Sequence record: NC_054914.1
Length of the DNA: 64,000 nt
Origin: Escherichia phage vB_EcoM-fFiEco06
Direction: 5' to 3' (one strand)
This document shows positions 23,084 to 62,205 of this stretch, piece by piece. The translations under genes and the position numbers were made by a program. Numbering within the stretch: the first letter of the stretch is position 1; each line of letters begins with the position of its first letter. The notes beneath the pieces are model-generated. The model ran no database searches and had not been told where the DNA came from. It worked only from the letters and a program-made list of their open reading frames with translations.

Positions 23084-23143
23084 TTTGTGTTCCTCATGTT
23101 ATGTCAGTAAGACTACTATAACACAACACGAGGGACTTGTAAA

Positions 23144-25201
23144 CTACATTTTGAACTTTTTAGACATTCCGTTGATGTTAACCAAAGAAGTCAAGATTTG
23201 AGAAACTTCATTTTCCTCTTCTTTTGATTCTTCTACAAGGAATTGATTAAATCCAGCCATTGGACGAACTTCACCAGTTTCCATTAGATGGTCTCCATCA
23301 TATACTGATTCTTCTAATTGTTCAGAAGGAGGAACGATTGTACCTTCGATTAGATACTTGTTATAAGCAGTTTCTTTCATAAAGTACGTACTTACTTTAT
23401 TAATCTTCAGTAAAATTCCACGTGGTAGAATAACTTCAGCTTCTGATGGAAATCCTGATAAATGACCTGGAACGATAACTTTGATTCGCTCAGCTCCTTT
23501 AATTACCATACCCACGCTAGTTTCTGCATCTTCATTAGCATATGTAGAATGACTACCCATATGCATCAAATCTTCTGCATCAACGGAACCTTCTCCTTCA
23601 CCAGAAAATACTGCGCCGGAATCATCTAGAGCCATATAGTTTTTACCATGCTCACCGAAGATATTTGGTTTAAGCGATGTGGATACGAAGTTCTTGAAAT
23701 AGAACATTTTATTTTCAATGTTATGACGCAAAGTTTTAAAGGTAACTTCTTGCCCACGGTAAAGTGTAGTTCCTGGAGGAAGAACTGATCCTTTGGCAAA
23801 GGCAGAATCTAACGTCTCGATGTGCTTAATAGCTCGTTCCATGTATTCTTCACGGGTAGAATCTGGTTTACCCAAAAGGAACGAGTTCATTTCAACATAT
23901 GAATCTGCACAATAATCTTCAATTACATCAGATTCAGCCTGAGTCAGTCCTTTTGGAGCTACTTCGGTGCTTGCGTATTCATATGCCTGGGCAGCAGATT
24001 CATTAATCAATTTATAAATGCCATTCATTACAAATTGAATAATAGCTGTCTTTTCATCTGGTGTGGTTTTAGAACCTTTAACTAAATCATTAATAATTTT
24101 CTTAATAACATCAAAGCTATTAGAAATATTAATGTCAGCAAGATCGCTTAAAATTTTATCAGTTTTATAATCAAAGAATTCTTTATTCTTTAAATATTCT
24201 TGAGAACCTTGATATGTTATATCGCTCTGCAACTTGATAGATGGATCACGTAAACGTGCATGGGCCAATGCAATATGATTTCGGAAGCTTTCTAGTTCAT
24301 AATCGCTAGATTTAAAACGAGAAGCACTTCTCATACCACCGATAGCTCCTTTGCTGAAGTTTGAACCAATCTGGATAACGCCAGAGTTCATTGGTCCTTC
24401 TGCTTTATATACCGGAACTTTAGATTCAAACTCTTGATATTTCTTGGCAGCGAAGCTATCACCCTGTAGCGAAGCATCGACAGTAGAATATTGAGCTTGT
24501 GCTGCTAATCGACGACTAATTTTAGTTTTCTGAATAACAGCTTGGTCCGTGCGCTTATCATTTTCTAAAGCAATAGAAGCAGCAACAGCGACAGCTTTAG
24601 GAACAGCATTTCCTGTTTTAACGTCTACATAAACATCACCGACCTTTGATTCAACTTTTGTGAATAACTCAGTTGAAATGGGAGGTACACCTGGAATGTC
24701 TTCTAAATTGGCATTTTTACGGTAAACCATAATATATGCGTACTTTTTATCGTAATCCCAGATTTCCTTTAAAAGAACATATCGACCTGCTCCTTTAGTA
24801 CGTACTAAACGGTCAGCAATAACTTGCATTTGACGAGCTGCGCCATTTGTTTTACTCTTTAGTACACGGAATAAGCACGCGTCAATTTTATACTGCTTCA
24901 TTGTTTGAAGAGCAGTATCAAAAACGGCATTAATGACACCAATTGGATTTCCACCCAAGTTTTTAAGCTTAACTAATGATAGTTTCTCATTAACACCTAT
25001 CATTACGATATGCATCATTTTATCGCCTGGCTTAACGTTTTTATTCGTATCACCACCAGAGGTGTATGTACAAAATCTAAATCCAGGAAGCACGCTTTCT
25101 TCGCCGGCTTGAATAGCAAAAATTTGTGGTATTTTATGCTTAGGATTTAAGTTAACAACCGGCGCCGAAGCGCCGTCAAATAATTCTGTAATAAGTTCCA
25201 T
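23144..25201 (-). CDS. Alt-like ADP-ribosyltransferase paralog (685 aa), R-S-E motifs intact
   Basis: N-terminus MELITELFD shared with the upstream copy; TLYRGQ, NFVSTSL, EAEVILPRG motifs seen. Confidence 0.75.
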   Translation of the reverse strand: MELITELFDGASAPVVNLNPKHKIPQIFAIQAGEESVLPGFRFCTYTSGGDTNKNVKPGDKMMHIVMIGVNEKLSLVKLKNLGGNPIGVINAVFDTALQTMKQYKIDACLFRVLKSKTNGAARQMQVIADRLVRTKGAGRYVLLKEIWDYDKKYAYIMVYRKNANLEDIPGVPPISTELFTKVESKVGDVYVDVKTGNAVPKAVAVAASIALENDKRTDQAVIQKTKISRRLAAQAQYSTVDASLQGDSFAAKKYQEFESKVPVYKAEGPMNSGVIQIGSNFSKGAIGGMRSASRFKSSDYELESFRNHIALAHARLRDPSIKLQSDITYQGSQEYLKNKEFFDYKTDKILSDLADINISNSFDVIKKIINDLVKGSKTTPDEKTAIIQFVMNGIYKLINESAAQAYEYASTEVAPKGLTQAESDVIEDYCADSYVEMNSFLLGKPDSTREEYMERAIKHIETLDSAFAKGSVLPPGTTLYRGQEVTFKTLRHNIENKMFYFKNFVSTSLKPNIFGEHGKNYMALDDSGAVFSGEGEGSVDAEDLMHMGSHSTYANEDAETSVGMVIKGAERIKVIVPGHLSGFPSEAEVILPRGILLKINKVSTYFMKETAYNKYLIEGTIVPPSEQLEESVYDGDHLMETGEVRPMAGFNQFLVEESKEEENEVSQILTSLVNINGMSKKFKM

Positions 25202-25204
25202 GAT

Positions 25205-27259
25205 TTATCCTTGAACGAACTTGTAAGGCATGTTTGCAATATCTATACAAGACGCAATAATTCCAAGAGATGATTCTACTTTCTGTTTAACGTTTGATGA
25301 AACAAATGATGTAAAGTCAACTCTGTCTTCTATTTCAATATCACCTGTCATTGCAACTACTTCGCCGGTTTCCATTAGACGGTCACCGTCATAAATTACC
25401 GATTCGGTGAGTTCTTCTGTGGTCATAACTTCAGCTTGAATAAGCTTGTTGTTAGTTTTAACTGTTCCATCATTGTAAGATGCATCGGTTATTTTATTAA
25501 CTTTGACCATTAATCCACGTGGCAAAATGACTTCCATTTCATTTGAAGGTGCTAAACTTCCACCTGGTAAAACAACATTGACTTTATCAGCCCCAGTAAT
25601 AACCCATCCAATTCCAACTAAATTATCGCTAGAATTTACTAGTCCTTCATCAGTTTTATCAATAGAAACACTTAAACGCTTTTCGTCTGGTAAAACACCC
25701 ACAGATGAATCAGTCATCCAGGTACCAAAAATATTTGGATATAATGATGTTGACACAAAATTTCTAAAATAAAAAACTCGATTTTTTACCAGTGCTTCAT
25801 ATATTGAAGGTAACATTCGTTGTGAACGATACAAAGTAATACCTTTTGGTAATCGTTCACCATTTTTAAAGGCAGAATCTAAATTATCAATAGCTTTTTC
25901 TATATCAGATGCTGTCAAAATACTTGTACGCTCATCTGGATTATATAATCCCAAAAGAGCGTTATTTATGTCTACATATCCTGAACTTACGTATTCACGA
26001 ATTCCGCGTTTTTGTGCCGGTGTGTATTTAGATGAATCTTTATTTTCGACTATAGGATGTAGTGACCATCCAGCGGTAAGAGCATATCCACGCAATTCTC
26101 TTCGAATAATCTTTGTTTTTATTGCATTCCAAGAATTTTGTACTAACTCATTCGCAGCATCTTGATTTAAATGCGAATGCTTGTTAATGTTTCTTTCTAA
26201 CCAAGCACCTTTATATTTTTCTAAAGTATCATCAACTATAGAAGCAATAGTTTCTAAAGTTTTTATTGAAGTAATAGATTCTTTTCGTAATCTTTCTAAA
26301 GCTTTATTTTTTATTTCTGCATTAACATCAGATTCTTTATCTTCAGGAATTATAGAAGCTTCTCTGAATGCCATTCCAGCTGTAACACTACTAAGAGCAT
26401 TCTCTAATGCAAATCCTGAAGTAGAAATAACAGTTAATTCATTAGCGTCAGAAATTAAAGGAGCGTCAGCAGGTTTATTTAATTCTGCTGCTGAAGCCTC
26501 AAATTTTTGAAACATCGGCGTTTCAAATCTAGAAGATTCCAATGATTGACTTTGCGCAATTGCTCTACGGGAAATTTTAACTTTAACGATTACAGCTTGG
26601 TCAGAACGTTTATCATTTTCTTGCGCAATAGATGCTGCAATTGCCTCATTTTTAGTTACTTGAGCTCCAGTATCTTTATTGATATAAACATCACCGACCT
26701 TCGATTCAACTTTAGTAAAGAGCTCAGTACTAATTTCCGGAACTCCCGGAATGTCTTCTAGTGATACATTTTTGCGATGTATAAGAATATATGCATACTT
26801 TTTATCGTAATCCCAGAGTTCCTTAAGAAGGACATATCTGCCACCTGAACGACTACGGATAAGTCTATCAGCAATAACTTGAATTTGTCGAGCTTGACCA
26901 GCGGTTTTAGACTTAAGAATACGAAGCATACAGGCATCAATTTTATACTGACGCATTGTTTGCATCGCAACAGTAAAAACTGAATTGATATAATTAATTG
27001 GGCTTGGACCAAGACCTTTTAATTTAGCAATTGAACCTTTAGCAGTTAATGTAAAAGGAACAATATGCATCATTTTATCGCCCATCTTTAAATCGCGATT
27101 AGTATCACCTCCAGATGTATAGGTACATAAACGAAAGCCTGGTTGTTCAATTGCATCATCAACATGAACTGAAAAAATTTGCGGTATTTTCTTCTTTGGA
27201 TTTAAGTTTGTAATCGGAAGAGTAGTATCTTCGTCAAATAATTCTGTAATAAGTTCCAT
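25205..27259 (-). CDS. alt: ADP-ribosyltransferase Alt (virion-packaged); start taken as second ATG (MELITELFDEDTT...)
   Basis: LYRSQ, FVSTSL, EMEVILPRG (R-S-E ART motifs); late promoter and RBS upstream; ~684 aa. Confidence 0.8.
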   Translation of the reverse strand: MELITELFDEDTTLPITNLNPKKKIPQIFSVHVDDAIEQPGFRLCTYTSGGDTNRDLKMGDKMMHIVPFTLTAKGSIAKLKGLGPSPINYINSVFTVAMQTMRQYKIDACMLRILKSKTAGQARQIQVIADRLIRSRSGGRYVLLKELWDYDKKYAYILIHRKNVSLEDIPGVPEISTELFTKVESKVGDVYINKDTGAQVTKNEAIAASIAQENDKRSDQAVIVKVKISRRAIAQSQSLESSRFETPMFQKFEASAAELNKPADAPLISDANELTVISTSGFALENALSSVTAGMAFREASIIPEDKESDVNAEIKNKALERLRKESITSIKTLETIASIVDDTLEKYKGAWLERNINKHSHLNQDAANELVQNSWNAIKTKIIRRELRGYALTAGWSLHPIVENKDSSKYTPAQKRGIREYVSSGYVDINNALLGLYNPDERTSILTASDIEKAIDNLDSAFKNGERLPKGITLYRSQRMLPSIYEALVKNRVFYFRNFVSTSLYPNIFGTWMTDSSVGVLPDEKRLSVSIDKTDEGLVNSSDNLVGIGWVITGADKVNVVLPGGSLAPSNEMEVILPRGLMVKVNKITDASYNDGTVKTNNKLIQAEVMTTEELTESVIYDGDRLMETGEVVAMTGDIEIEDRVDFTSFVSSNVKQKVESSLGIIASCIDIANMPYKFVQG

Positions 27260-32574: not shown

Positions 32575-32823
32575 TTACTTCAATGTTACCACAAAGTGAC
32601 GAACTGCTTTTCGTGCAGCAGAAGCCAGAGGCTTAGCATATTTAAGTTCATCTTTTTCCTGAAGCTCAGCAGCTAATGCAGTTTGAGCAGGATTCAGATG
32701 TTTGAAATAACGCAGGATTTCAAGAGCTTCGGCTTCAACATCAATAGATGCGCCATAGTTTTCGTGACCATTATTCCATGCGTTTCGTTGCAGTTCAAGA
32801 GCGTGTTGTAATTGTTTAATCAT
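32575..32823 (-). CDS. rIII: lysis-inhibition accessory protein rIII (82 aa)
   Basis: Length and position match T4 rIII. Confidence 0.85.
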   Translation of the reverse strand: MIKQLQHALELQRNAWNNGHENYGASIDVEAEALEILRYFKHLNPAQTALAAELQEKDELKYAKPLASAARKAVRHFVVTLK

Positions 32824-32970
32824 TTAAAAATTCTCGTTAGAGATTAAAACTCGGTAGTCACGTTCTTCTGAATTTCATCTTCTTTCGACAGATCTCTCAG
32901 TTGTAGACTACCACATAGAATTGTTCGGTTAACTTATTATTCCGACACCCAATTCATATTATTATTTATA

Positions 32971-33306
32971 TCACTTATAAAGACACGGAATAGCTTTATA
33001 GTGACAAGTAACGAATTTTTGTTTAATTTCTTTTGGCTGCTTAAGACCCAGAGCTACAAAAGGATGCGGAACATTTCGAATTTGACCAACTGGAAGAGAA
33101 GTCAAATCACCAACTTCGCAGAAACCTTCAGGAACATCAGGACCAACAGAGTGAACTACACACAGTTCAGGAACTTCACCTTGGACACGTTTACCAATAA
33201 TAAGTCCTGATTCTGTAACTTCTTCATCACCGGCTTGTGCAGGTTCAGAAACTAAAATAACATATTCACCGACAGCACGAATTGGTAGCTGTTGTACTTC
33301 AGACAT
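32971..33306 (-). CDS. 31: co-chaperonin gp31 (GroES-like, 111 aa)
   Basis: Sequence recognisable as T4 gp31 ([21 protein letters not shown]...). Confidence 0.92.
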
Positions 33307-33362
33307 CGTTTTTCCTTTTTGTTAACAGATGAATTAATAATAACAAATAGTTCTTAAAGCAT

Positions 33363-33671
33363 TTATTTACCAATAAATTGAAGCAAATGCTCAACTTTCA
33401 TACCATTAACGGAAATCAATTTGTCAATAGAAAAACCTCGCCACGCACCAAGCTCAACATCAAATACTGGAATCATGTCAGTAGATTCTTTCCGAGTAGA
33501 TTCAGTCAATTTGCCAGTTTGCATGGTTGGCATAAAGTCCGCGTCGCGAGTACCTTTCATAACACGAATAGTACCGTCAGACTTTTCAAAAACTACGTTT
33601 GAAACACCCATGGACAATTTAGTTTTCAAAATTTCACGAATTGCTACTTTTTGTTCAGTCGTCAGTTTCAT
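33363..33671 (-). CDS. hypothetical protein, 102 aa (position of T4 31.1)
   Basis: ORF in array. Confidence 0.5.
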   Translation of the reverse strand: MKLTTEQKVAIREILKTKLSMGVSNVVFEKSDGTIRVMKGTRDADFMPTMQTGKLTESTRKESTDMIPVFDVELGAWRGFSIDKLISVNGMKVEHLLQFIGK

Positions 33672-33908
33672 TTATTTACCTATTACAGTTTTAATATGAG
33701 TTGTTCCACGTTCTTTAAGAGTGGAAAGTAATTTTTGGCATTTTTCTAAATCAGATTTCCAACTATATGGTCTATCAATACAAACCCATTCTGACTTATA
33801 ATACTGCTTCCATTTAGAGAAAAAATATTTCTTATACTCTACAGCAAATGAAATATTCTCATTAGAATAAGAACTAATTGCTGTGAGCTGTACCAAACGA
33901 AATTTCAT
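33672..33908 (-). CDS. hypothetical protein, 78 aa (position of T4 31.2)
   Basis: ORF in array. Confidence 0.5.
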   Translation of the reverse strand: MKFRLVQLTAISSYSNENISFAVEYKKYFFSKWKQYYKSEWVCIDRPYSWKSDLEKCQKLLSTLKERGTTHIKTVIGK

Positions 33909-34489
33909 TATTCACCACAGAATTCGTTGATATTTTCCCAGTTTAACTTATTCAAGTTTTTCTTAGGAACATTAAACACTTCAATACCTGCATTTCGCAG
34001 AATATCATCCCAGCCAGGTTTATTTTTATCGTATGTTTCACAATAAACCAGCTTTTTAATTCCAGATTGAGCTATTGCTTTTGCACAATCTGGGCAAGGA
34101 GAAAGTGTTACATACATAGTAGCACCTTCAATTGAAGAACCGTTTCGTGCAGCAAACAAAATCGCATTTAGTTCAGCATGAATTTCATTTTTAGACGACC
34201 ATTCAGAGTGCGCGCTACGATGTTCTTTCGCCAATACAAAACGATCAGTTGAACCAAACGATACACATTCAGGCTTATGACCTTGAATGATAGTATGTTT
34301 AGGTTTATTCAGCAACCAACCTTGCTCAGCAGCATAATCACAACAGTTCACACCACCTGCAGGTGAACCATTATATCCAGTAGAAATAATACGTCCATTC
34401 TTTTCAATTACTGCTCCTACTTTCCAGGAGCAACATTTTGATTCTTGTGATACTAAATATGCAATTTGAAGTACTGTACTCGCTTTCAT
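33908..34489 (-). CDS. cd: dCMP deaminase (193 aa)
   Basis: Zinc-binding deaminase motifs HAELNAI and PCPDCAKAI; length matches T4 Cd. Confidence 0.92.
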   Translation of the reverse strand: MKASTVLQIAYLVSQESKCCSWKVGAVIEKNGRIISTGYNGSPAGGVNCCDYAAEQGWLLNKPKHTIIQGHKPECVSFGSTDRFVLAKEHRSAHSEWSSKNEIHAELNAILFAARNGSSIEGATMYVTLSPCPDCAKAIAQSGIKKLVYCETYDKNKPGWDDILRNAGIEVFNVPKKNLNKLNWENINEFCGE

Positions 34490-34824
34490 TTCATAATCAC
34501 CAGATAAGCAGATTTAGCAGTTTCAACACGATAAATTTCGTGACGAAGTTTAGTTATACTTTTAATAACAGAACTAATTATATTCTGCCCATCTTTAAAG
34601 CGGTTTTTCTTATCAATAAAAATTGCGCCAACCATCTTTTTGTGAAGCTCAACCGGATACTTCGTCACAATAATAGCATCATACACAGAAGGATGAATAC
34701 TATTCACCAAAGTATCATTCATTAAAGTTATTCTAATGAACTTTGCTGTTTCAGAGTCAAGCGCTCTATGATCGCCAGTATCATTTTCAAGACAATTATC
34801 AATTATATCAGTTAAATTCATCAT
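34486..34824 (-). CDS. hypothetical protein, 112 aa (cd.1 position)
   Basis: ATGA-coupled ORF. Confidence 0.5.
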   Translation of the reverse strand: MMNLTDIIDNCLENDTGDHRALDSETAKFIRITLMNDTLVNSIHPSVYDAIIVTKYPVELHKKMVGAIFIDKKNRFKDGQNIISSVIKSITKLRHEIYRVETAKSAYLVIMK

Positions 34825-35057
34825 AGTACGCCATACACCCTTTGTGCTTCAACTAATCCATCAAAATCCAATTTGAGATGTGTTATTTGGTCACCATCAC
34901 CTGGATTCACAATTACTAATACTGAACGAGGAGTTTCGGTAATAACACGAACCGATGTTTCGGGAAATCGTTCAGAAACCTTATTTACTAATTCCTGCGC
35001 AAATAGTTTAACTTTTTCTTGGAATTCTTTAACAGTAATTGGTTTTTCACTTAGCAT
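34821..35057 (-). CDS. hypothetical protein, 78 aa (cd.2 position)
   Basis: ATGA-coupled ORF. Confidence 0.5.
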   Translation of the reverse strand: MLSEKPITVKEFQEKVKLFAQELVNKVSERFPETSVRVITETPRSVLVIVNPGDGDQITHLKLDFDGLVEAQRVYGVL

Positions 35058-35578
35058 GTTGATCCCAGCTCCTTACTTTCAACGTTTTTAACTAATTTGA
35101 CAGAAACTAATTCAGCATCTTGGGTAATCATTACCGGGCCTTCTTCATGCTCTTCAAGATATTCTAGAGCTTTCTTTTTAGCTTCTTCCTTCGTATCAGT
35201 TTGAGCATAGATATAGAACATACAACCAGTAATACCTACTACTTTCCACTTAATTTCTTTATCAGTTTTAATTTCAAATTTACTTACAGAATCATCTTTT
35301 TGAACTTCTTCGAAAAAAGAATATTCTAACATATAAGCAATTGAAAATAACGGGCTAACTTTATAGGATTCACCCATTACATCAACAGCTTTATACCAAC
35401 AATCATCAATTTCGCGTTTAATGCTAATAACATTTTTCGCAGGATCTATTTTTACTTTAAATGAATTTTCCCCAATAAACTGGGCAATTCGTTTATTAGC
35501 CCCGCAAGTTTCATTAAAAATATCTTTATACCCAGTTTTAAAGCGATAAACCTTATCTTCTTCAAACCATTCGCTCAT
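35051..35578 (-). CDS. hypothetical protein, 175 aa (cd.3 position)
   Basis: ORF preceded by promoter cassette. Confidence 0.5.
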   Translation of the reverse strand: MSEWFEEDKVYRFKTGYKDIFNETCGANKRIAQFIGENSFKVKIDPAKNVISIKREIDDCWYKAVDVMGESYKVSPLFSIAYMLEYSFFEEVQKDDSVSKFEIKTDKEIKWKVVGITGCMFYIYAQTDTKEEAKKKALEYLEEHEEGPVMITQDAELVSVKLVKNVESKELGSTC

Positions 35579-35599
35579 TTCAATTTCCTCGTTTGTTTT

Positions 35600-35638
35600 G
35601 GTAGAGCTATAATATCACAACTCTACCGTAAAGTAAAC
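35600..35638 (-). promoter_or_regulatory. early promoter/stem-loop cassette: -35 GTTTAC (35638-35633), 18-nt spacer, -10 TATTAT (35614-35609), inverted repeat GGTAGAG/CTCTACC
   Basis: Same architecture as the 31630-31669 element. Confidence 0.5.
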
Positions 35639-35639
35639 T

Positions 35640-35945
35640 TTAAATTGCTTTGAATTCTGATGTCTGTGATTTAAAGCGAATATCGCCTTTGATGACTAGC
35701 TCAGCATCAAGACCGAATACGACAATGATATGCGCGGAACCTGGATACAACGTGATGGCAACAGAATCCACCTGGTCTGGAAGCAAAGTGTTCAATACAT
35801 GAGTCACTTGAGCATGGATTCGAAGCTCAGCTGCGTTATCAAGTTTTTCAAACATATTATTAGCGATAATTTGGCTAAACACTACTTCTACGATTTTAGA
35901 GTAAGTCGGAAACATATTTACCTCACATAATTTTCTTCGAGCCAA
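35640..35945 (-). CDS. hypothetical protein, 101 aa (cd.4 position)
   Basis: ORF in array. Confidence 0.5.
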   Translation of the reverse strand: MARRKLCEVNMFPTYSKIVEVVFSQIIANNMFEKLDNAAELRIHAQVTHVLNTLLPDQVDSVAITLYPGSAHIIVVFGLDAELVIKGDIRFKSQTSEFKAI

Positions 35946-36110
35946 TCAATAACATCCAAAGCGTTATCAAAAGTTGCGCCATCTACTTTGTCTTCTGTTT
36001 CATAATCAAGAACATCTAGGCCTACTCTTCCGTCAACAATAGGCCATAGACAAAATAGATATTTCTTTTCTTTTTCAATTTTATCACAAAGACGATAAAT
36101 CTTTTCTAGG

Positions 36111-36118
<8 letters not shown>
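35918..36118 (-). CDS. hypothetical protein, 66 aa (cd.5 position)
   Basis: ORF in array. Confidence 0.45.
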
Positions 36119-37526
<1,408 letters not shown>

Positions 37527-37530
<4 letters not shown>

Positions 37531-37757
37531 TTATTTTTCTCAACCAATGATTGAATATAATCATGCAGGTCTTTAGATGCTTTGCCCCACTTATTTTGGT
37601 ATTCATTTTTAAGATTAGCACGTGATTGAGCTAATAAAACATCATTAGTTGGAGGTAAAGATTCTAATCGCTGAATCTGGCGTCCATAAATCATTGCAGC
37701 CATCTCGGATTCATAAATCAATCCTTTGAGATGTTCAAATTGATGCCATGAAATCAT
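37527..37757 (-). CDS. hypothetical protein, 76 aa
   Basis: ATGA-coupled ORF. Confidence 0.45.
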
Positions 37758-38053
37758 TTACATTTATCCTCTTTTAACTCTTGACGATAATAACATATCA
37801 TAGTTTTCTGGTCGTGTACATATCGTTTTACATCATTAAGCCAAATACGAAATTCCTGAGAATCTTCAAATGGCATACCGACCCAAGCTTTACCATCAAT
37901 AACTTTAACTTGCCAAGATAATTTAGCTTCGTCATATGACTTTATTTGTACAGGCCAATTAGGATGAACTGTTTCTTTCTTTACTTCTAGAGGCTTTGTC
38001 GAACAACCAACTAGAAGACCAATAGATAATATTACTGCTGATAGTTTAATCAT
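37754..38053 (-). CDS. outer-membrane spanin (o-spanin) lipoprotein, 99 aa; probably the T4 pseT.2 equivalent
   Basis: Signal peptide with lipobox LLVGC (MIKLSAVILSIGLLVGCS). Confidence 0.7.
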   Translation of the reverse strand: MIKLSAVILSIGLLVGCSTKPLEVKKETVHPNWPVQIKSYDEAKLSWQVKVIDGKAWVGMPFEDSQEFRIWLNDVKRYVHDQKTMICYYRQELKEDKCK

Positions 38054-38403
38054 TTAGAAAGGTCCTGGATGTCTTCTGCGAACTTGTTGAAGGAGTTGTT
38101 GATTTGTTTTTCAACCAATCCTGGCTTACGAGCCACCACATCCGCCTTCTTTGCATCTTTGCGCAGTTTTTCATTTTCACGCTCAATAGCAGCAATCGCC
38201 TCACGATTTTTATTATTCATCGCATCAATATAATTATACTGAATTCGCAAATTATTTAATGCTAAGGCGTTTTCATTGGCCGTTTTTGTAATTTCTACAA
38301 CAGACGTTTCTAATCTTTCAATTTTATTTTTTAAAATTAAAGAAGTTCCGCCTAATGCAATTACAATTAATAGCAAACCTGCTGTCGTATTACTTAATTG
38401 CAT
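38050..38403 (-). CDS. inner-membrane spanin (i-spanin), 117 aa; probably the T4 pseT.3 equivalent
   Basis: N-terminal transmembrane helix (AGLLLIVIALGGTSLIL) then coiled-coil-like periplasmic domain; directly upstream of the lipoprotein gene. Confidence 0.7.
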   Translation of the reverse strand: MQLSNTTAGLLLIVIALGGTSLILKNKIERLETSVVEITKTANENALALNNLRIQYNYIDAMNNKNREAIAAIERENEKLRKDAKKADVVARKPGLVEKQINNSFNKFAEDIQDLSK

Positions 38404-38900
38404 AAAGTTTTAATAACCTCTATAATATCGTCTTGAGAAAGACCGTTAATTAAAATATGATGTTCAGCCGGAGATTTAGAAATTTTAAAGCACGCCGCAA
38501 CATCTTCTGCCATATCCGATGCGCTACGATTTGGATTACTAATTCCAAGACGATGTTTTCCCGTTAAAGGATTAACGATGATATAGCATTTACAGTTGTT
38601 AATATGAACATTAGGTTGAGTCTGATTAATGAACACATCGCAATCATATTTCGCAAGCTGATTTTCTAAAAAGACTTTCATCTCCTCAACCGCATCAGGA
38701 AGCATATCACGGGCTTGCTCAAGACGACGATTTCGATATTCTTTAATGGTCGTTTTCCGCTTGACTTGCTTAGCTAAATCTTTCTTAAGATCGGTGATAT
38801 ATCCAACTCGACGATTTCCTTTAAATACAGAAATCCCATCTGTAGTATCACCGTATGCTTCAACGACCATTTCAGTAGTAATAAGCTGCAAATCCATCAT
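38394..38900 (-). CDS. alc: Alc transcription-termination protein candidate (168 aa)
   Basis: Assigned by size and position next to rnlA. Confidence 0.55.
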   Translation of the reverse strand: MMDLQLITTEMVVEAYGDTTDGISVFKGNRRVGYITDLKKDLAKQVKRKTTIKEYRNRRLEQARDMLPDAVEEMKVFLENQLAKYDCDVFINQTQPNVHINNCKCYIIVNPLTGKHRLGISNPNRSASDMAEDVAACFKISKSPAEHHILINGLSQDDIIEVIKTLCN

Positions 38901-38961
38901 AAAGTCCTCATGTTATGTCAGTAAGACTACTATAACACAACACGAGGGACTTGTAAACAGC

Positions 38962-40549
<1,588 letters not shown>

Positions 40550-40557
40550 AATAAAAT

Positions 40558-40571
40558 GGGCCTTGCGGCCC
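40558..40571 (-). terminator. GGGCC-GCAA-GGCCC hairpin between nrdB stop and denA start
   Basis: 5-bp GC stem read on minus strand, followed by AUUUUAUU. Confidence 0.5.
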
Positions 40572-40576
40572 ACTCC

Positions 40577-41755
40577 TTAAAAGTATTTTTTAAAACTCAT
40601 CATAACTTTATCATCAACATCATTATCAATCTGTGCAACAAGGTAAGATGACAATTCTACTTCTTGTGGCGCAGATTGAACATTATCAGAATTAAGATAT
40701 TCACGAATCCAAGGATATGGATGTTTAACCGGAGCATCGGTAATTGGGCATGGAAGACCACACTGCTTCATACGAGATACAGTTAAGTAATCAATAAAGC
40801 TCCACATGCTATTTGTATTTAATCCAGGAACATCTCCATCTTTAAATAAATGAACTGCCCAATCTTTTTCTTGGCGGTTAACTTCCATGAAAATATCAAC
40901 TGCTTCTTGTTCACACTCTTGAGCAATTTTAACCCATTGATCGCCATCAGTACCAGATTGAAGTTGACGAATAATATATTGGGTGCCTTTAAGGTGAAGC
41001 TGTTCATCGCGTGCAATGAACTTCATAATCTTGGCATTACCTTCCATGATTTCCATGTTCTTATGGAAGTTAAAGGTACATGCAAAAGATACATAAAAAC
41101 GAATAGCTTCCAATGCGTTGATTACATGCAAACAGAGGTAAAGAGATTTCATTAGCTCACGCTTCCAATATGTCTCATGCTCAATAGCATCTTCAATAAC
41201 GTCTTCGTCTGCATTAATTTCTTTTTGGTATTCGATATCAGCTTTAGCGTTTTCCCAATAACGAGTTTTAATCAGAACATCATCATAATAACGTCCAATG
41301 GATTCAGCACGTTTCATAATAGCTTCATCTAATACAATCTCATCAAATACCTTCGATGGATCAGTATAAAGATTTCGCATGATATGAGTATATGAACGAC
41401 TGTGAATAGTTTCACTAAAAGTCCATGTAGCAACCCATGTATCAAGACTTGGGTCTGAAATTAATGACATAAGTACAGCAGACGGCGCACGACCCTGAAT
41501 GCTATCTAAAAGTGATTGATACTTCAGGTTGTTAGTAAAAATATTTTGCTGGTACTGAGGAAGCTTATTAAACTGTGCAGCATCCATCATCAAGTTTACT
41601 TCTTCAGGACGCCAGAAAAATGATAATTGCTTTTCGGTTAAATCTTCAAAAACTTTATGACGTTGAATATCATAACGCGCAATACCAAGACCTGAACCAA
41701 AAAACATAGGTTCTTTTAAAACATCAACTGGATTTGTATTAAAAACTGTGCTCAT
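40577..41755 (-). CDS. nrdB: ribonucleotide reductase small subunit NrdB, uninterrupted
   Basis: Continuous 392-aa ORF recognisable as R2. Confidence 0.9.
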   Translation of the reverse strand: MSTVFNTNPVDVLKEPMFFGSGLGIARYDIQRHKVFEDLTEKQLSFFWRPEEVNLMMDAAQFNKLPQYQQNIFTNNLKYQSLLDSIQGRAPSAVLMSLISDPSLDTWVATWTFSETIHSRSYTHIMRNLYTDPSKVFDEIVLDEAIMKRAESIGRYYDDVLIKTRYWENAKADIEYQKEINADEDVIEDAIEHETYWKRELMKSLYLCLHVINALEAIRFYVSFACTFNFHKNMEIMEGNAKIMKFIARDEQLHLKGTQYIIRQLQSGTDGDQWVKIAQECEQEAVDIFMEVNRQEKDWAVHLFKDGDVPGLNTNSMWSFIDYLTVSRMKQCGLPCPITDAPVKHPYPWIREYLNSDNVQSAPQEVELSSYLVAQIDNDVDDKVMMSFKKYF

Positions 41756-41806
41756 AAATTTTCCGCTTAGTTAATAGTTGGTGACTCGTCCGTGAGTCAA
41801 ATTATA

Positions 41807-44071
41807 TCATAATTTACAGGATGAACAATCTTCAGCTTTTGGAGTTTCTATTTCATAATCATCAGTACCAGAACCATCGCGGGTATTATGATAATAGAAA
41901 TTTTTTCCGCCAAAATACCAAAAATACAAAAGGTCATCAATCATTATTGACATTGGAACCTTGCCTTTAGGGAAGATTTGGGGGTCATAGTATGTATTCG
42001 CCGAAGCTGATTGACAAACCCATTTCAGCATAATAGCTACCTGCGTAAGATAAGGTTTATTACCTTTCTTAGCTAATTTCCATGTATAGTCGTAAAGGTC
42101 TATGTTATGCTCAATATTGGGCACGACTTGATTAAAGGAACCCTCTTTTGATTCTTTAACAGAGACTGGTCCACGTGGAGGCTCGATACCGTTTGTACTG
42201 TTAGAAACTTGGGAAGATGACTCACATGGCATAAGTGCTGATAATGTGCTATTACGGATGCCAAAGAGCTTAAGGTCTTCCCGCAGCGCCGACCAGTCAC
42301 AAACGTATTTTGGAGCTGCGATTTGGTCAATCTTTTTATTGTACCAGTCGATAGGTAATTCGCCTCGAGACCAACGAGTGTCTGAATAATATTCGCAAGG
42401 TCCTTTTTCTTTGGCGAGCTTAATGGATGCTTTAATGAGTCCATACTGTAATCTCTCAAATAGTTCATGTGTTAAATCATTAGCATCTTCATAAGAAGCA
42501 AAGTTACTTGCCAGCCAAGCTGCATAGTTGGTAACACCTACACCGAGGTTACGACGCTTTTTAGCTTTTTCTGCTTCAGGAACTGGATATCCTTGGTAAT
42601 CCAACAGATTATCAAGAGCACGAACTTGAACTTCTGCCAATTCATTAATTTTATCTTGGTCTTGCCAGTCAAAATTATCTAGTACGAATGCAGAGAGAGT
42701 ACACAATCCAATTTCAGCATCAGGACTATTCACATCATTTGTTGGAATAGCAATTTCACAGCACAAGTTACTCTGACGAATAGGTGCCTTTTCACGAATA
42801 AACGGAGTATAGTTATTCGTATTATCAATGAACTGTACATAAATTCTTGCTGTTCCTGAGCGTTCAGTCATGAGCAATTCAAATAGTTCACGGGCTTTAA
42901 TACGCTTTTTACGAATATTAGGGTCTTTTTCTGCTGCTTCGTATAATTCACGGAAACGGTCTTGGTCTTTAAAATAAGAATAATAAAGCTCTCCGCCCAT
43001 TTCATGGGGACTGAACAAAGTAATGTAATCGTTCTTTCCAAAACGTTCCATCATCAAATCATTCAGTTGAACACCATAATCCATATGACGAATGCGGTTT
43101 TCTTCTACGCCTTTGTTATTTTTCAAAACAAGAAGATTTTCAACTTCCAAATGCCAAATAGGATAATAAGCAGTAGCAGCGCCGCCACGAATTCCACCCT
43201 GTGAGCATGATTTAACAGCAGTCTGAAAATGTTTCCAAAAAGGAATAACACCAGTATGGCGTACTTCACCCATGCCAATCTTAGAACCTTCAGCACGAAT
43301 CATACCAACGTTAATACCAATTCCAGCGCGTTTAGAGATATATTCAACAATTGAAGCAGAAGCCTTATTGATAGACTTCAGTGAATCGCCTGCCTCAATA
43401 ACAACGCATGAACTAAACTGCCGAGTTGGAGTACGGCAACCAGCCATAATAGGAGTTGGTAATGAAATCTGTCGAGTAGATACCGCTTCATAAAAACGGA
43501 TAACATGTTTTAATCTATCAACAGGTTCATCTTGATGCAAGGCCATTCCAATAGTCATAAATGCAAACTGTGGAGTTTCATAAATTTGACCAGTGGTTTT
43601 ATCTTTAACTAGATATTTTTCTTTTAATTGCATCGCCCCGGAATAAGTAAATTCCATATCCCGTTCGTGCTTAATTTTTGATTCTAAAAATGTAATTTCT
43701 TCTGCTGAATATTTTGACAACAGTTCAGGGTCGTATTTACCTTCATTTACACAGTAAGAAATATGGTCAATAAATGAACGCGGTTCATACTGCCCATAAA
43801 CATGCTTACGAAGAGCGAACATTAGACAACGTGCAGCTACATATTGATAATCAGGCTCTTCGACCGAAATAGAATTCGCAGCGGCCTTAATGACAATAGT
43901 CTGAATATCATCAGTTGTCATTCCATCACGGAGATAAGATTTAATATTTTCATATAATTCATAAGGATCTACTGATGTTCCCTCAGATGCCCAAGATAAA
44001 ACTTTAATAATTTTTTGCGGGTCAAAGCTCTGAGAAACACCACTACTTTTGATAACATTAATTAATTGCAT
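41807..44071 (-). CDS. nrdA: ribonucleotide reductase large subunit NrdA (754 aa)
   Basis: Length matches T4 NrdA; class I RNR large subunit. Confidence 0.93.
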   Translation of the reverse strand: MQLINVIKSSGVSQSFDPQKIIKVLSWASEGTSVDPYELYENIKSYLRDGMTTDDIQTIVIKAAANSISVEEPDYQYVAARCLMFALRKHVYGQYEPRSFIDHISYCVNEGKYDPELLSKYSAEEITFLESKIKHERDMEFTYSGAMQLKEKYLVKDKTTGQIYETPQFAFMTIGMALHQDEPVDRLKHVIRFYEAVSTRQISLPTPIMAGCRTPTRQFSSCVVIEAGDSLKSINKASASIVEYISKRAGIGINVGMIRAEGSKIGMGEVRHTGVIPFWKHFQTAVKSCSQGGIRGGAATAYYPIWHLEVENLLVLKNNKGVEENRIRHMDYGVQLNDLMMERFGKNDYITLFSPHEMGGELYYSYFKDQDRFRELYEAAEKDPNIRKKRIKARELFELLMTERSGTARIYVQFIDNTNNYTPFIREKAPIRQSNLCCEIAIPTNDVNSPDAEIGLCTLSAFVLDNFDWQDQDKINELAEVQVRALDNLLDYQGYPVPEAEKAKKRRNLGVGVTNYAAWLASNFASYEDANDLTHELFERLQYGLIKASIKLAKEKGPCEYYSDTRWSRGELPIDWYNKKIDQIAAPKYVCDWSALREDLKLFGIRNSTLSALMPCESSSQVSNSTNGIEPPRGPVSVKESKEGSFNQVVPNIEHNIDLYDYTWKLAKKGNKPYLTQVAIMLKWVCQSASANTYYDPQIFPKGKVPMSIMIDDLLYFWYFGGKNFYYHNTRDGSGTDDYEIETPKAEDCSSCKL

Positions 44072-44388
44072 AAGTCCTCAACTTGAAAATCGTCTTTAAA
44101 CAGTCGGTTAACTATATGAGCTATTATATCACCATGACACGGCTTTGGTTTACATGTGCATCCTAGCCTCATTCCACGTAAAGGCTCTAAATGTGCTTTA
44201 GTTATTTCTCCGGATTTAATTCGACGTATAAAATCTTTTTTGAATAATTCAATGGCAGCCTCCCGGCTGCCAGCATCTTTACCGACGTAATTTCCCCAAA
44301 ATGTACCACGGTGAATATTCACATCAAAGTCGGATTTGTATTTATTCACTACCCGACATAGACGGCCCGCGCGGTGATAATTCGGCAT
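44062..44388 (-). CDS. hypothetical protein, 108 aa (nrdA.1 position)
   Basis: ORF overlapping nrdA start. Confidence 0.5.
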
Positions 44389-44605
44389 ATTGTTTTTCCG
44401 TTAAAACAGTAATATCGTAGTAACAGTCAGAAGAAGTTTTAACTGTGGAAATTTTATTATCAAAATACTCACGAGTCATTTTATGAGTATAATATTTTTT
44501 GCCATAAATGATAATAGGCTGATTTGGTCCTGGAACTTCTAACTCACTTGGGTTAGGAAGTGTAAAAAGAACTACACCAGAAGTATCTTTAAATCGTAAA
44601 ATCAT
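44342..44605 (-). CDS. hypothetical protein, 87 aa (nrdA.2 position)
   Basis: ORF in array. Confidence 0.5.
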
Positions 44606-44628
44606 AAATCCTCACAATTAAATTAAAA

Positions 44629-44940
44629 TTACACCGCCATTTTTCCTTTCAAGACGCCGTGGGACTGATAATCTTTGAGAACGAAATCTTTAGGCCTGAG
44701 TTTAAGAATGTATTCCAATTGTTCTTTAGTAGAAAGATAGCGGAATTTATAAGGCAATCCGCCTATTACCAGTTCACAAAGCTCTTTAGGTTCACGACGC
44801 AAAATTTCTTTACATTGTTCTACGTGATTCATATAGATATGAGTATTACCACCGGAAAATATCAAATCTCCCGGAATAAGATTACACATCTTAGCTACAA
44901 TATGAACTAACGTAGCATATGATGCAATATTAAATGGAAG
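44629..44940 (-). CDS. td: thymidylate synthase exon 2 (103 codons, begins LPFNIASYA...)
   Basis: TS C-terminal sequence; exon junction deduced from reading frame. Confidence 0.92.
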   Translation of the reverse strand, partial: LPFNIASYATLVHIVAKMCNLIPGDLIFSGGNTHIYMNHVEQCKEILRREPKELCELVIGGLPYKFRYLSTKEQLEYILKLRPKDFVLKDYQSHGVLKGKMAV

Positions 44941-45956
44941 CATTATGTTCAGATAAGGTCGTTAATCTTACCCCGGAATTATATCCAGCTGCATGTCACC
45001 ATGCAGATCAGACTATATCTCCAACTTGTTAAAGCAAGTTGTCTATCGTTTCGAGTCACTTGACCCTACTCCCCAAAGGGATAGTCGTTAGGCATTTATG
45101 TAGAACCAATTCCATTTATCAGATTTTACACGATAAGTAACTAATCCAGACGAAATTTTAAAATGTCTAGCTGCATCTGCTGCACAATCAAAAATAACCC
45201 CATCACATGAAATCTTTTTAATATTACTAGGCTTTTTACCTTTCATCTTTTCTGATATTTTAGATTTAGTTATGTCTGAATGCTTATGATTAAAGAATGA
45301 ATTATTTTCACCTGAACGATTTCTGCATTTACTACAAGTATAAGCAGAAGTTTGTATGCGAACACCGCACTTACAAAACTTATGGGTTTCTGGATTCAAA
45401 CGCCCGTTTTTACTTCCGGGTTTACTGTAAAGAGCTTTCCGACCATCAGGTCCAAGTTTAAGCATCTTAGCTTTAACAGTTTCAGAACGTTTCTTAATAA
45501 TTTCTTCTTTTAATGGATGCGTAGAACATGTATCACCAAACGTTGCATCAGCAATATTGTATCCATTAATTTTAGAATTAAGCTCTTTAATCCAAAAATT
45601 TTCTCGTTCAATAATCAAATCTTTCTCATATGGAATTTCTTCCAAAATAGAACATTCAAACACATTACCATGTTTGTTAAAAGACCTCTGAAGCTTTATA
45701 GAAGAATGGCATCCTTTTTCTAAATCTTTAAAATGCCTCTTCCATCTCTTTTCAAAATCTTTAGCACTTCCTACATATACTTTATTGTTTAAAGTATTTT
45801 TAATCTGATAAATTCCGCTTTTCATAAATACCTCTTTAAATATAGAAGTATTTATTAAAGGGCAGTCCTACAATTTAGCACGGGATTGTCTACTAGAGAG
45901 GTTCCCCGTTTAGATAGATTACAAGTATAAGTCACCTTATACTCAGGCCTCAATTA
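44941..45956 (-). mobile_element. td group I self-splicing intron (1016 nt) carrying I-TevI
   Basis: Intron 5' sequence TAATTGAGGCCTGAGTATAAGGTGACTTATACTTGTAATC... recognised; length equals T4 td intron. Confidence 0.92.
45088..45825 (-). CDS. I-TevI: GIY-YIG homing endonuclease I-TevI (245 aa), intron-encoded
   Basis: N-terminus MKSGIYQIKNTLNNKVYVGSAKDFEKRWKRH (GIY...YVG) and zinc finger; length matches. Confidence 0.93.
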   Translation of the reverse strand: MKSGIYQIKNTLNNKVYVGSAKDFEKRWKRHFKDLEKGCHSSIKLQRSFNKHGNVFECSILEEIPYEKDLIIERENFWIKELNSKINGYNIADATFGDTCSTHPLKEEIIKKRSETVKAKMLKLGPDGRKALYSKPGSKNGRLNPETHKFCKCGVRIQTSAYTCSKCRNRSGENNSFFNHKHSDITKSKISEKMKGKKPSNIKKISCDGVIFDCAADAARHFKISSGLVTYRVKSDKWNWFYINA

Positions 45957-46504
45957 ACCCAAGAAAACATCTACTGATCGTTGATACCACTGCAAATCCA
46001 AATAGCCATTACGCACATTAAACTGATAGAACATATGACAAGGCGGTAATGCCATCTGCTTGAGTTCAGCTGGATTCCATGCTGAAACAATTTGACGCCT
46101 ATCATTTGGCAATTTTTTAATACGATCAATAACTTCTATAATTTGGTCTACACCACCAAAATCACGCCACTGTTTTCCATAAATTGGACCAAGTTCACCG
46201 CTATGGTATCCTAAATCTTTTGCTTGATTTTCGTAATTTTCATCCCAAACTGTTTTGCCTTGGATTAACGAATCATGTTGAATTAATCGCAAATCATTGA
46301 CATTTGTGCTTCCCGATAAAAACCAAAGCAGCTCAGCAATGCAAGCTTTCCAGGCGAGCTTCTTAGTTGTTACTGCAGGAAAACCTTTAGTTAAATCCCA
46401 GCGTAATTTAGTACCGAACAAAGCAATTGTTCCTGTGCCTGTTCGGTCATCGGTTTCGTAGCCATTTTCCAGGATATCTTTAATTAAAAATTGGTATTGT
46501 TTCA

Positions 46505-46505
<1 letters not shown>
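45957..46505 (-). CDS. td: thymidylate synthase exon 1 (183 codons, MKQYQ...VDVFLG)
   Basis: TS N-terminal sequence; exons 1+2 give 286 aa as in T4. Confidence 0.92.
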
Positions 46506-47534
<1,029 letters not shown>

Positions 47535-47544
47535 ATTATTTTCC

Positions 47545-47787
47545 TTAAACAGACTTTTTCACAATTTTCCAATCAGCTTTAAACTGCTCGACGTCAGAAT
47601 GGTAAATCCAGAATCCTGCGCTTTCACCGTCTTCATAAAGCGGACACCCATCACATTCATCTTCCCATCCCATGCCACGTAAAAGGTGTTCAGCTTTTTC
47701 AACAAGTTCAGAATCTTTACCGATGATATTAAAATACCATTTACCTCTAACTTCTGAATCTTTGATGCTCTGGCGTTGTAATCTCAT
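47545..47787 (-). CDS. hypothetical protein, 80 aa
   Basis: ORF in array. Confidence 0.5.
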   Translation of the reverse strand: MRLQRQSIKDSEVRGKWYFNIIGKDSELVEKAEHLLRGMGWEDECDGCPLYEDGESAGFWIYHSDVEQFKADWKIVKKSV

Positions 47788-47925
47788 TTTATTCTCCTTA
47801 GCAAGCTTTAATCAAAAGATATAAACAGACCAACATAACTGCTGCCATAATATAAGGTGCGAACATTTTCTTTTCTCCATTAGTTTTGATAGGGTAATAG
47901 TATCACACTACTACCCTTCTGTAAA

Positions 47926-48291
47926 CTACTTTTTGAAAGTTTTTCGCAAAAGTTCAATGATTTCATCTACATTGTTTTCGTCAACAATGCAGTGAATTTT
48001 TGTTACGCCAGAAACTTTGTCTTTGACTTCATCTTCTTCAGAAGTCGGTTCTTTATACTCACGAAAACAATGAAATTCGTCTTCACAAACGTTAAAGTAA
48101 AAATGCTTTCCATTTGCGCATTCAATGTGTTTTATTACTCTAAATCCATCAACAAAGAAAGCTTCTTTAACTTCAAACCATCCGCCATTTTCTTGAATAA
48201 TTTTAACTATTGCTGAATTAGAACGTGGGCGATAATTAATAAATGTATCAATAAGTCTTGGAACAAGTTCATACTTTTTACCGATATACAT
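47926..48291 (-). CDS. hypothetical protein, 121 aa
   Basis: ORF with GAGG RBS after hairpin. Confidence 0.5.
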   Translation of the reverse strand: MYIGKKYELVPRLIDTFINYRPRSNSAIVKIIQENGGWFEVKEAFFVDGFRVIKHIECANGKHFYFNVCEDEFHCFREYKEPTSEEDEVKDKVSGVTKIHCIVDENNVDEIIELLRKTFKK

Positions 48292-48312
48292 TATGTTTTC
48301 CTCATTTTAACG

Positions 48313-48329
48313 GGGCTGTAATAGCCCCT
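48313..48329 (-). terminator. GGGGCT-(5 nt)-AGCCCC hairpin between early ORFs
   Basis: 6-bp stem read directly. Confidence 0.4.
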
Positions 48330-48335
48330 TGATAA

Positions 48336-48563
48336 TTATTGTTCAATCAATCCCATGTAAAATTCTGCGTCTTCAGAATCCATACCATCACAATATTCAT
48401 TAGCCATAAAGCGGGTGAGGTCTTCAAGAGGACCTTCAATAACGATTTGAATACTCCAAAACTTAGAATCTTGCACGCTTGTGATACTAAGTTCAGGATA
48501 ACGATTACGAATAATTTCTTCGATATATTCAAAATCAACGATGTCAATATCAACTTTAGCCAT
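48336..48563 (-). CDS. hypothetical acidic protein, 75 aa (start ATG 48563 with GAGGA RBS rather than the upstream in-frame ATG)
   Basis: Strong RBS TTAAAGAGGAAAATAAT-ATG. Confidence 0.5.
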
Positions 48564-48666
48564 ATTATTTTCCTCTTTAATCATCAGCAGTATTGCCGAT
48601 AGTTGTATAGTACCATGGAAGGACAAGGATGTAAACCGTTTTGTGAAAAAATTTTTGAAATAAAAA

Positions 48667-48685
48667 GGGGACCTCTAGGGTCCCC
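48667..48685 (-). terminator. GGGGACC-(5 nt)-GGTCCCC hairpin + U-tract downstream of gene 32
   Basis: 7-bp stem followed by TTTTTA on minus strand. Confidence 0.75.
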
Positions 48686-48707
48686 AATTAATTAGTAATA
48701 TAATCTA

Positions 48708-49616
48708 TTAAAGGTCATTCAAAAGGTCATCTAGGTCCGTGTCATCAGCACTAGATGAACTGCCAGAGCTTGAGCTCATAAAATCATCTTCAGTTTTTGT
48801 ATTGAAGTCATCAACATTGAATGCATCCAAATCATCAGCAACTTTATCAGCTTTCTTAGCAGCAGTTGCAGCAGCACCGCCCATCACAGCAGTTCCCATA
48901 ACTTGACCGAATTTAGTGCTCAGTTCTTCAAACGATTTGAATTTATCTTTAGAAGTCATTTCAGAAAGGTCAACCATTTGTTCGAACAGTTCTTTCTGGA
49001 AAGATTCATCGTCAATGTTTGGAATCGCAGATTGATTCAGGAATTTAGATTCGTCGTAGTTACTAAATCCAGAAACCTGTTTAACTTTCAGTACAAAGTT
49101 AGCACCTTCCCACGGACAAGTTACATCAACCGGAGTTTCACCCATTTCAACATCAACCGCAATCATCGCGTTGATTTTATCCCAGATTTTCTTACCGAAA
49201 CGATATTTAAATACTTTACCTTCATTTTCTGGAGCAGCTGGGTCTTTTACAACAAGAATATTAGCCCAGTAAGAAGTTTTACGTTTAACAAGACTGTACT
49301 CTTTATTGTCAGTGTTGTACAGATCATTTTTACTGATGTACTGACATACTGGACAAGAATCGTAATCACCGTGGGTAGATGAACAGTTTTCAATATACCA
49401 TTTACCATTTTTCTTGAAACCGTGATTTACAAGAATTGCGAACGGTGCTTGTTCATCATTTTTAGACGGAAGAAAACGAATTACTGCTTGACCGTTACCC
49501 GCATTGTCGAGTTTCAGTTTCCACTCGCCTTTATCTTCAGAAGAAAAACCACCTTTATTTCCAGCCAGTTTAGCCATTTGTGCAGCGAGTTCAGCAGTAG
49601 ATTTACGTTTAAACAT
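48708..49616 (-). CDS. 32: single-stranded DNA-binding protein gp32
   Basis: Sequence recognisable as T4 gp32 ([17 protein letters not shown]...; acidic Ser-rich C-terminus). Confidence 0.95.
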
Positions 49617-49682
49617 TTTTATTTCCTTTTTAATTTAATTAACAGTTGGTGCTATGACGATGTATGACCTCATAGCTGGTCA
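49617..49682 (-). promoter_or_regulatory. gene 32 autoregulatory translational operator: A/U-rich leader (UUAAUUAAAUUAAAAAGGAAAUAAAAAUG) preceded by an RNA pseudoknot
   Basis: Minus-strand leader read directly; pseudoknot stems UGACC/GGUCA and GCUAUGA/UCAUAGC. Confidence 0.75.
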
Positions 49683-49699
49683 GTGAGATAATTATAATC

Positions 49700-49707
49700 T
49701 ATTTATA
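49700..49707 (-). promoter_or_regulatory. late promoter TATAAATA (minus strand) upstream of gene 32 leader
   Basis: Exact TATTTATA on plus strand. Confidence 0.55.
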
Positions 49708-61548: not shown

Positions 61549-62205
61549 ATGGCAGCACCTAGAATATCATTTTCGCCCTCTGATATTCTATTTGGTGTTC
61601 TAGATCGCTTGTTCAAAGATAACGCTACCGGGAAAGTTCTTGCTTCTCGGGTAGCTGTCGTAATTCTTTTGTTTATGATGGCGATTGTTTGGTATAGGGG
61701 AGATAGTTTCTTTGAGTACTATAAGCAATCAAAGTATGAAACATACAGTGAAATTATTGAAAAGGAAAGAAATGCACGCTTTGAATCTGTCGCCCTGGAA
61801 CAACTCCAGATAGTTCACATATCATCTGAGGCAGACTTTAGTGCGGTGTATTCTTTCCGCCCTAAAAACTTAAACTATTTTGTTGATATTATAGCATATG
61901 AAGGAAAATTACCTTCAACAATAAGTGAAAAATCACTTGGAGGATATCCTGTTGATAAAACTATGGATGAATATACAGTTCATTTAAATGGACGTCATTA
62001 TTATTCCGACTCAAAATTTGCTTTTTTACCAACTAAAAAGCCTACTCCCGAAATAAACTACATGTACAGTTGTCCATATTTTAATTTGGATAATATCTAT
62101 GCTGGAACGATAACCATGTACTGGTATAGAAATGATCATATAAGTAATGACCGCCTTGAATCAATATGTGCTCAGGCGGCCAGAATATTAGGAAGGGCTA
62201 AATAA
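61549..62205 (+). CDS. t: holin T (218 aa)
   Basis: Sequence recognisable as T4 T holin (MAAPRISFSPSDILFGVLDRLFKDN...; single TMD, large periplasmic domain). Confidence 0.93.
   Translation: MAAPRISFSPSDILFGVLDRLFKDNATGKVLASRVAVVILLFMMAIVWYRGDSFFEYYKQSKYETYSEIIEKERNARFESVALEQLQIVHISSEADFSAVYSFRPKNLNYFVDIIAYEGKLPSTISEKSLGGYPVDKTMDEYTVHLNGRHYYSDSKFAFLPTKKPTPEINYMYSCPYFNLDNIYAGTITMYWYRNDHISNDRLESICAQAARILGRAK

Follow-up and report, generated by a model that had tools for sequence, protein, structure and literature searches.

Two adjacent genes in a 64,000-nucleotide stretch of the Escherichia phage vB_EcoM-fFiEco06 genome (NC_054914.1; the whole stretch is referred to here as the window) almost certainly encode the two-component spanin of this T4-like phage (Tequatrovirus), as orthologues of pseT.3 and pseT.2, an assignment to which we give a probability of about 0.96. 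Such a spanin pair is already known, and the genes analyzed here are not novel: they are a near-identical copy of a validated pair in its textbook location. The value of the analysis lies in the correct annotation of both genes and in the positive control that they provide, namely that a spanin pair can be recognized from a transmembrane domain and a lipobox alone. The features of the pair are as follows:

38050..38403, minus strand: i-spanin gene (pseT.3 orthologue), open reading frame of 117 aa
37754..38053, minus strand: o-spanin gene (pseT.2 orthologue), open reading frame for a 99-aa precursor
38050..38053, minus strand: stop/start overlap ATGA of both spanin genes, 4 nt

The gene pair and its T4 orthologues

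The original prediction, which was made from the letters of the DNA, described a 117-aa protein with an N-terminal transmembrane domain and a coiled-coil-like region, followed with a 4-nt overlap by a 99-aa lipoprotein. Both frames were found (38403..38050 and 38053..37754), and all the sequence features ascribed to the pair are present, but its location on the minus strand had been left unstated. When read on that strand, the stop codon TGA of the i-spanin gene overlaps the start codon ATG of the o-spanin gene within the tetranucleotide ATGA. This overlap represents the ‘separated’ spanin architecture, because a pair overlapping by 8 bp has been counted in that class (Kongari et al., 2018; PMC6139136) and the 4-nt overlap thus qualifies as well. 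Moreover, it probably allows translational coupling of pseT.3 and pseT.2.

The reading as i-spanin and o-spanin was borne out by amino acid identity to T4 PseT.3 and PseT.2 of 91% (117/117 residues aligned) and 99% (99/99 aligned), respectively, matches to the PHROG lysis families 739 (i-spanin, E = 4.3e-37) and 812 (o-spanin, E = 3.5e-43), both named ‘Rz-like spanin’, and the position in the genome. In T4 (NC_000866), pseT.3 (117 aa) and pseT.2 (99 aa), both annotated as ‘Rz-like spanin’, are located between alc and pseT.1, and the pair at 37,754-38,403 occupies the same slot. The separated spanin pair had therefore been recognized rightly, but not the fact that its gene order is the standard one of T4. 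In common with T4 are the lengths of 117 and 99 aa, the ATGA overlap, the lipobox LVGC, the residues Cys87 and Cys98 of the o-spanin, an i-spanin without cysteine, and the location of the spanin genes apart from t and e. The i-spanin differs from T4 PseT.3 by ten substitutions, nine of which fall within residues 1-36 (N-terminus, transmembrane domain and juxtamembrane region), the remaining one being R92H; in the o-spanin, Ile86 stands against an ambiguous base at that place in the T4 record. Many tblastn alignments of Tequatrovirus sequences to the i-spanin begin only at residue 21, which fits a possibly variable membrane anchor; masking of the hydrophobic stretch by the BLAST low-complexity filter could be an alternative cause of these late starts.

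Among ‘separated’ two-component spanins, T4 PseT.3/PseT.2 is the paradigm: cloned pseT.3/pseT.2 is as effective as Rz/Rz1 in complementing a lambda Rz-am/Rz1-am lysogen, the PseT.2 variants C87S and C98S as well as the double mutant are all lysis-defective, disulfide-linked PseT.2 dimers are formed only when PseT.3 is present, and the T4 spanin products were detected by antibodies (PMC6139136). By analogy to these orthologues, whose complementation is known, the pair analyzed here would function as a spanin.

Genomic context and transcription

For the analysis of the surroundings, the annotation of Escherichia phage vB_EcoM-fHoEco02 (MG781191.1, positions 95992-159988, Tequatrovirus) was read onto the window, with which this record is collinear at 99.93-99.95% identity. 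Further lysis-related genes in the window are:

61549..62205, plus strand: holin gene t, 98.6% identity to T4 T (Pfam Phage_holin_T, E = 1.9e-117)
32575..32823, minus strand: lysis-inhibition accessory gene rIII, annotated at the same coordinates in the fHoEco02 record; open frame of 82 aa

The neighbours on the strand of the pair are cd, cd.1-cd.5, pseT, pseT.1, alc, rnlA, denA, nrdB, nrdA, td, and frd, in accordance with the claim that the pair is embedded among early nucleotide-metabolism genes. The distance to the holin gene, put at about 23 kb in the original prediction, was measured as 23,146 nt from the pseT.3 start to t. Likewise, the claim that the window holds no endolysin gene agrees with both searches made: tblastn with T4 lysozyme E yielded no match there (best E = 2.8), and no lysozyme is among the annotated features of the fHoEco02 record across the window's stretch. 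In T4, e is located at 66.5 kb, outside the region corresponding to the window. The scattered layout of spanin genes, t, and e is the standard and documented T4 arrangement, in which the spanin genes lie away from holin t and endolysin e, unlike in the lambda cassette (PMC6139136). The lysis-timing regulator rIII, located about 5 kb from the spanin genes, had been overlooked in the first reading of the window.

Several other genes of the window were observed to deviate from T4 or to be of interest in their own right. Between pseT.1 and pseT lies an extra ORF of 106 aa (37210-37530, minus strand), which overlaps its neighbours by 4 nt on both sides, belongs to PHROG 2364 (function unknown), and has no Pfam or NCBIfam match; it is carried by fHoEco02 and absent from T4, in which pseT.1 abuts pseT, and a counterpart of the same length in Yersinia phage vB_YenM_P8 is annotated as ‘thioredoxin’. 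A 175-aa ORF without Pfam match between cd.2 and cd.3 (35051-35578, minus strand) is an insertion relative to the early region of T4. Furthermore, a 212-aa ORF (1242-1880, plus strand) is present between the genes of gp18 (tail sheath) and gp19 (tail tube); it is annotated as hypothetical in fHoEco02, has no Pfam match, and may represent a mobile or accessory element inserted among the late structural genes. The gene directly upstream of t (60717-61517, plus strand) encodes a glycine-rich T2-type gp38 tail-fibre adhesin of 266 aa (Pfam GP38, E = 8e-69), whereas T4 gp38 is an unrelated assembly chaperone of 183 aa; the host-range module is therefore T2-like, while the window otherwise closely resembles T4. 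The nrdB gene (40577-41755, minus strand) runs without a break, unlike its T4 counterpart, which is joined from two pieces and contains an intron; td (44629-46505, minus strand) has retained its intron along with the homing endonuclease I-TevI (45088-45825). Finally, the minus strand carries at 23143-27258 a tandem pair of genes of the alt family (ADP-ribosyltransferase), each for about 685 aa, the first of which is, according to the collinear record, a fusion-like relative of T4 Alt.-1/Alt.-2.

The spanin genes are part of a tightly packed chain in the order alc, pseT.3, pseT.2, pseT.1, the 106-aa ORF, pseT, and cd.5, with gaps of -10, -4, -4, -4, -4, and -1 nt, respectively. A consensus scan detected one putative promoter in the 61-nt gap between rnlA and alc, thus heading the chain from alc to cd.5:

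38929..38957, minus strand: sigma-70-like promoter match, TTTACA, 17-nt spacer with TG, TATAGT

Since a generic sigma-70 scan of the region yielded 15 sites as compared to 19.3 ± 4.9 in shuffled sequences, i.e., such sites are no commoner than in shuffled sequence, the match is no more than suggestive as a candidate source of spanin transcripts. The T4 late-promoter consensus TATAAATA was not found on the minus strand from 32970 to 49700, a 17-kb early block containing the spanin genes; in the whole window it has 18 matches as compared to 8 expected, mostly ahead of structural genes (e.g., at 1907, 1966, 2527, 6156, 7912, and 51940 on the plus strand). Judged from these motifs and the gene order, this suggests that the spanin genes may be transcribed with the early/middle alc-pseT unit. 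Early expression of spanins fits the model of their action, because spanin complexes are harmless until the cell wall is removed. No data on the timing of pseT.2 and pseT.3 expression were found in the searchable literature.

The tightly overlapped chain of early/middle type, the sigma-70-like match, and the lack of a late consensus over about 11 kb upstream on the strand of the pair also led us to consider that the spanins are made well before holin and endolysin and have a second role prior to lysis, which we regard as improbable. If true, envelope-spanning complexes would be pre-assembled throughout the latent period, prolonged lysis inhibition included, and the pre-lysis role might be, e.g., tethering of the envelope in lysis inhibition or an effect on superinfection. 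Such a role would hold for T4 itself and would not be specific to this window. The analysis gave no support for a second role besides spanin function.

Very improbable, in our estimation, is that membrane protein and lipoprotein serve a different envelope function altogether, such as superinfection exclusion or receptor blocking in the manner of Cor, Llp, or T4 Imm/Sp. Exclusion functions are known for small phage lipoproteins, and both the early/middle-type overlapped chain behind a sigma-70-like match and the lack of a late-promoter consensus nearby on the strand of the pair would suit them. However, the T4 orthologues, which share 91% and 99% of their residues with the pair, restore lysis to the lambda spanin double amber mutant, an ability that is lost when the conserved cysteines carry point mutations (PMC6139136). 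Together with the conserved pairing of the genes and the conserved cysteines, which fit spanin function, these findings led us to reject an exclusion lipoprotein in favour of the spanin assignment.

Protein features and conservation

Hydropathy analysis of the i-spanin confirmed the N-terminal transmembrane domain: the best 19-residue Kyte-Doolittle window comprises residues 6-24 (TTAGLLLIVIALGGTSLIL) with a mean of 2.11, above the usual cut-off of 1.6, and is the only hydrophobic segment of the protein. The i-spanin contains no cysteine. A single-sequence AlphaFold2 model (mean pLDDT 89) places helices at residues 2-91 and 94-116 with a break at P94-G95, and a crude heptad count found hydrophobic residues in 7 of the 8 a/d positions within residues 25-55. 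The charges beside the transmembrane domain (no K/R in the N-terminal flank; three K/R and three D/E in the C-terminal flank, residues 25-39) were uninformative and gave no support for the expected N-in/C-out (type II) topology. Such a topology of the i-spanin would instead follow, by analogy, from the periplasmic interaction of PseT.3 with PseT.2 in T4.

The o-spanin starts with MIKLSAVILSIGLLVGC, which fits a lipobox pattern of the PROSITE type in which Cys17 would be lipidated. The predicted cleavage region is MIKLSAVILSIGLLVG|C17-S18 with the lipobox LVG|C17, so that the lipoprotein with an LVGC lipobox was found as claimed; the mature lipoprotein predicted from the lipobox has 83 aa. The +2 residue is Ser18, and the Asp inner-membrane retention signal is lacking. 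Two further cysteines are present, Cys87 and Cys98. The single-sequence AlphaFold2 model of the o-spanin is of low confidence (pLDDT 51), for which reason only the order of its secondary structure elements, beta-alpha-beta, was used. This order, as well as the helix-hinge-helix model of the i-spanin, agrees with the secondary structure described for T4, i.e., an i-spanin of the order alpha1-short linker-alpha2 and an o-spanin of the order beta-alpha-beta (PMC6139136).

As a control for chance occurrence, the six frames of the whole window were scanned for the lipobox pattern in every frame that begins with Met and has 50 aa or more, and the pattern was fitted by 2 of 473; the second one is an unannotated frame of 51 aa, leaving the o-spanin as the sole match in a real gene. 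Taken together with the evidence from homology, this control places the pair far beyond chance expectation.

The proteins of the pair are widely distributed among phages. A 1.5-kb region around the pair has matches in 504 phage records, nearly all of them of Tequatrovirus and several at 100% identity, and tblastn detected the o-spanin in 1240 and the i-spanin in 526 phage records. Several deposited genomes label one or both spanin genes as ‘hypothetical protein’. Comparison of the loci of seven relatives, namely T4 (Tequatrovirus), Yersinia phage vB_YenM_P8 (unclassified T4-like), a Mosigvirus, Klebsiella phage Mineola (Jiaodavirus), a Serratia Winklervirus, Aeromonas phage Aeh1 (Cinqassovirus), and RB16 (Pseudotevenvirus), revealed that the i-spanin gene comes first and adjoins the o-spanin gene in all seven, which represent six Straboviridae genera and one unclassified phage. 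The proteins are conserved down to 26-38% identity across the six genera. In the alignments of the two proteins with eight relatives, C17, C87, and C98 are invariant in the o-spanins down to 37% identity, and the C-terminal motif KPxLxExxINxS of the i-spanin (KPGLVEKQIN-SF) is kept; the aligned relatives also share the o-spanin core W-V...G..V....S..R.W (W/VGMPFEDSQEFRIW) and the N-terminal hydrophobic stretch of the i-spanin. Conservation of this kind would be expected of a functional pair whose members interact. Scans of both proteins against Pfam and NCBIfam matched no spanin model, and a search of PDB sequences retrieved no solved relative of either protein. The only Pfam match, at 20 bits as compared to a cut-off of 100 bits, was with the crescentin rod domain; it was regarded as a compositional coiled-coil signal and rejected as homology.

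That the two frames are chance reading frames or mis-called genes could be thought of, given the shortness of the genes and the many spurious frames in mechanical ORF lists of AT-rich phage DNA, but this notion has a negligible probability and is refuted by the conservation of both proteins down to 26-38% identity with invariant functional residues, besides the strong PHROG matches, the annotation in hundreds of records, and the detection of the T4 products by antibodies (PMC6139136). An equally negligible probability is assigned to a lipoprotein acting alone as a unimolecular spanin next to an unrelated 117-aa protein: such spanins exist, e.g., gp11 of T1 (PMC6139136), but all o-spanin windows with a Kyte-Doolittle value of at least 1.6 lie within residues 1-22, which means that hydrophobicity of this degree is confined to the signal peptide and that the C-terminal transmembrane domain of the T1 gp11 type is absent, the T4 PseT.2 disulfide dimers require PseT.3 (PMC6139136), and every relative examined carries both spanins.

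Proposed mechanism and comparison with known spanins

For the spanin pair of vB_EcoM-fFiEco06, we propose that the N-terminal transmembrane domain would hold the i-spanin in the inner membrane, with the long helical domain reaching into the periplasm, and that the o-spanin precursor would undergo export, lipidation on Cys17, and cleavage by signal peptidase II. The lipidated o-spanin is located in the inner leaflet of the outer membrane (PMC6139136). Both proteins would then bind each other via their periplasmic domains, with PseT.2 covalently dimerized through Cys87 and Cys98, giving complexes that cross the periplasm through the peptidoglycan mesh; intact murein would restrain these complexes, which would be harmless meanwhile. 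Once holin T has triggered and lysozyme E has broken down the wall, the freed complexes would change their conformation and fuse the inner with the outer membrane, removing the final barrier to virion release. The fusion model and the restraint of spanins by peptidoglycan have been described (PMC6139136). Membrane fusion has been demonstrated directly only for lambda Rz/Rz1. For the pair studied here, we infer the topology, the fusion step, and the expression from the early/middle alc-pseT unit.

Like lambda Rz/Rz1, the pair would combine an outer-membrane lipoprotein with an inner-membrane protein of predicted type II topology whose periplasmic domain is helical; moreover, the T4 pair substitutes for the lambda proteins in lysis and intermolecular disulfides are needed (PMC6139136). 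By contrast, sequence similarity to the lambda proteins is low, the sole link being a weak match of the i-spanin (E = 7.7e-6) to PHROG 214, a second ‘Rz-like spanin’ family, which may include lambda Rz. In lambda, Rz1 lies within Rz in the +1 frame and the spanin genes are part of a late lysis cassette (S R Rz/Rz1), whereas the genes are arranged in tandem here. Rz has two coiled-coil helices and carries cysteines, whereas the i-spanin described here is devoid of cysteine, and Rz1 is proline-rich and unstructured, whereas PseT.2 has a predicted beta-alpha-beta structure with both essential cysteines (PMC6139136). Gp11 of T1 shares with the pair the same last step of lysis and an N-terminal outer-membrane lipoprotein signal (PMC6139136). 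However, T1 gp11 is one polypeptide with a C-terminal transmembrane domain, while the spanin of vB_EcoM-fFiEco06 is made up of two polypeptides, of which the lipoprotein has no such domain.
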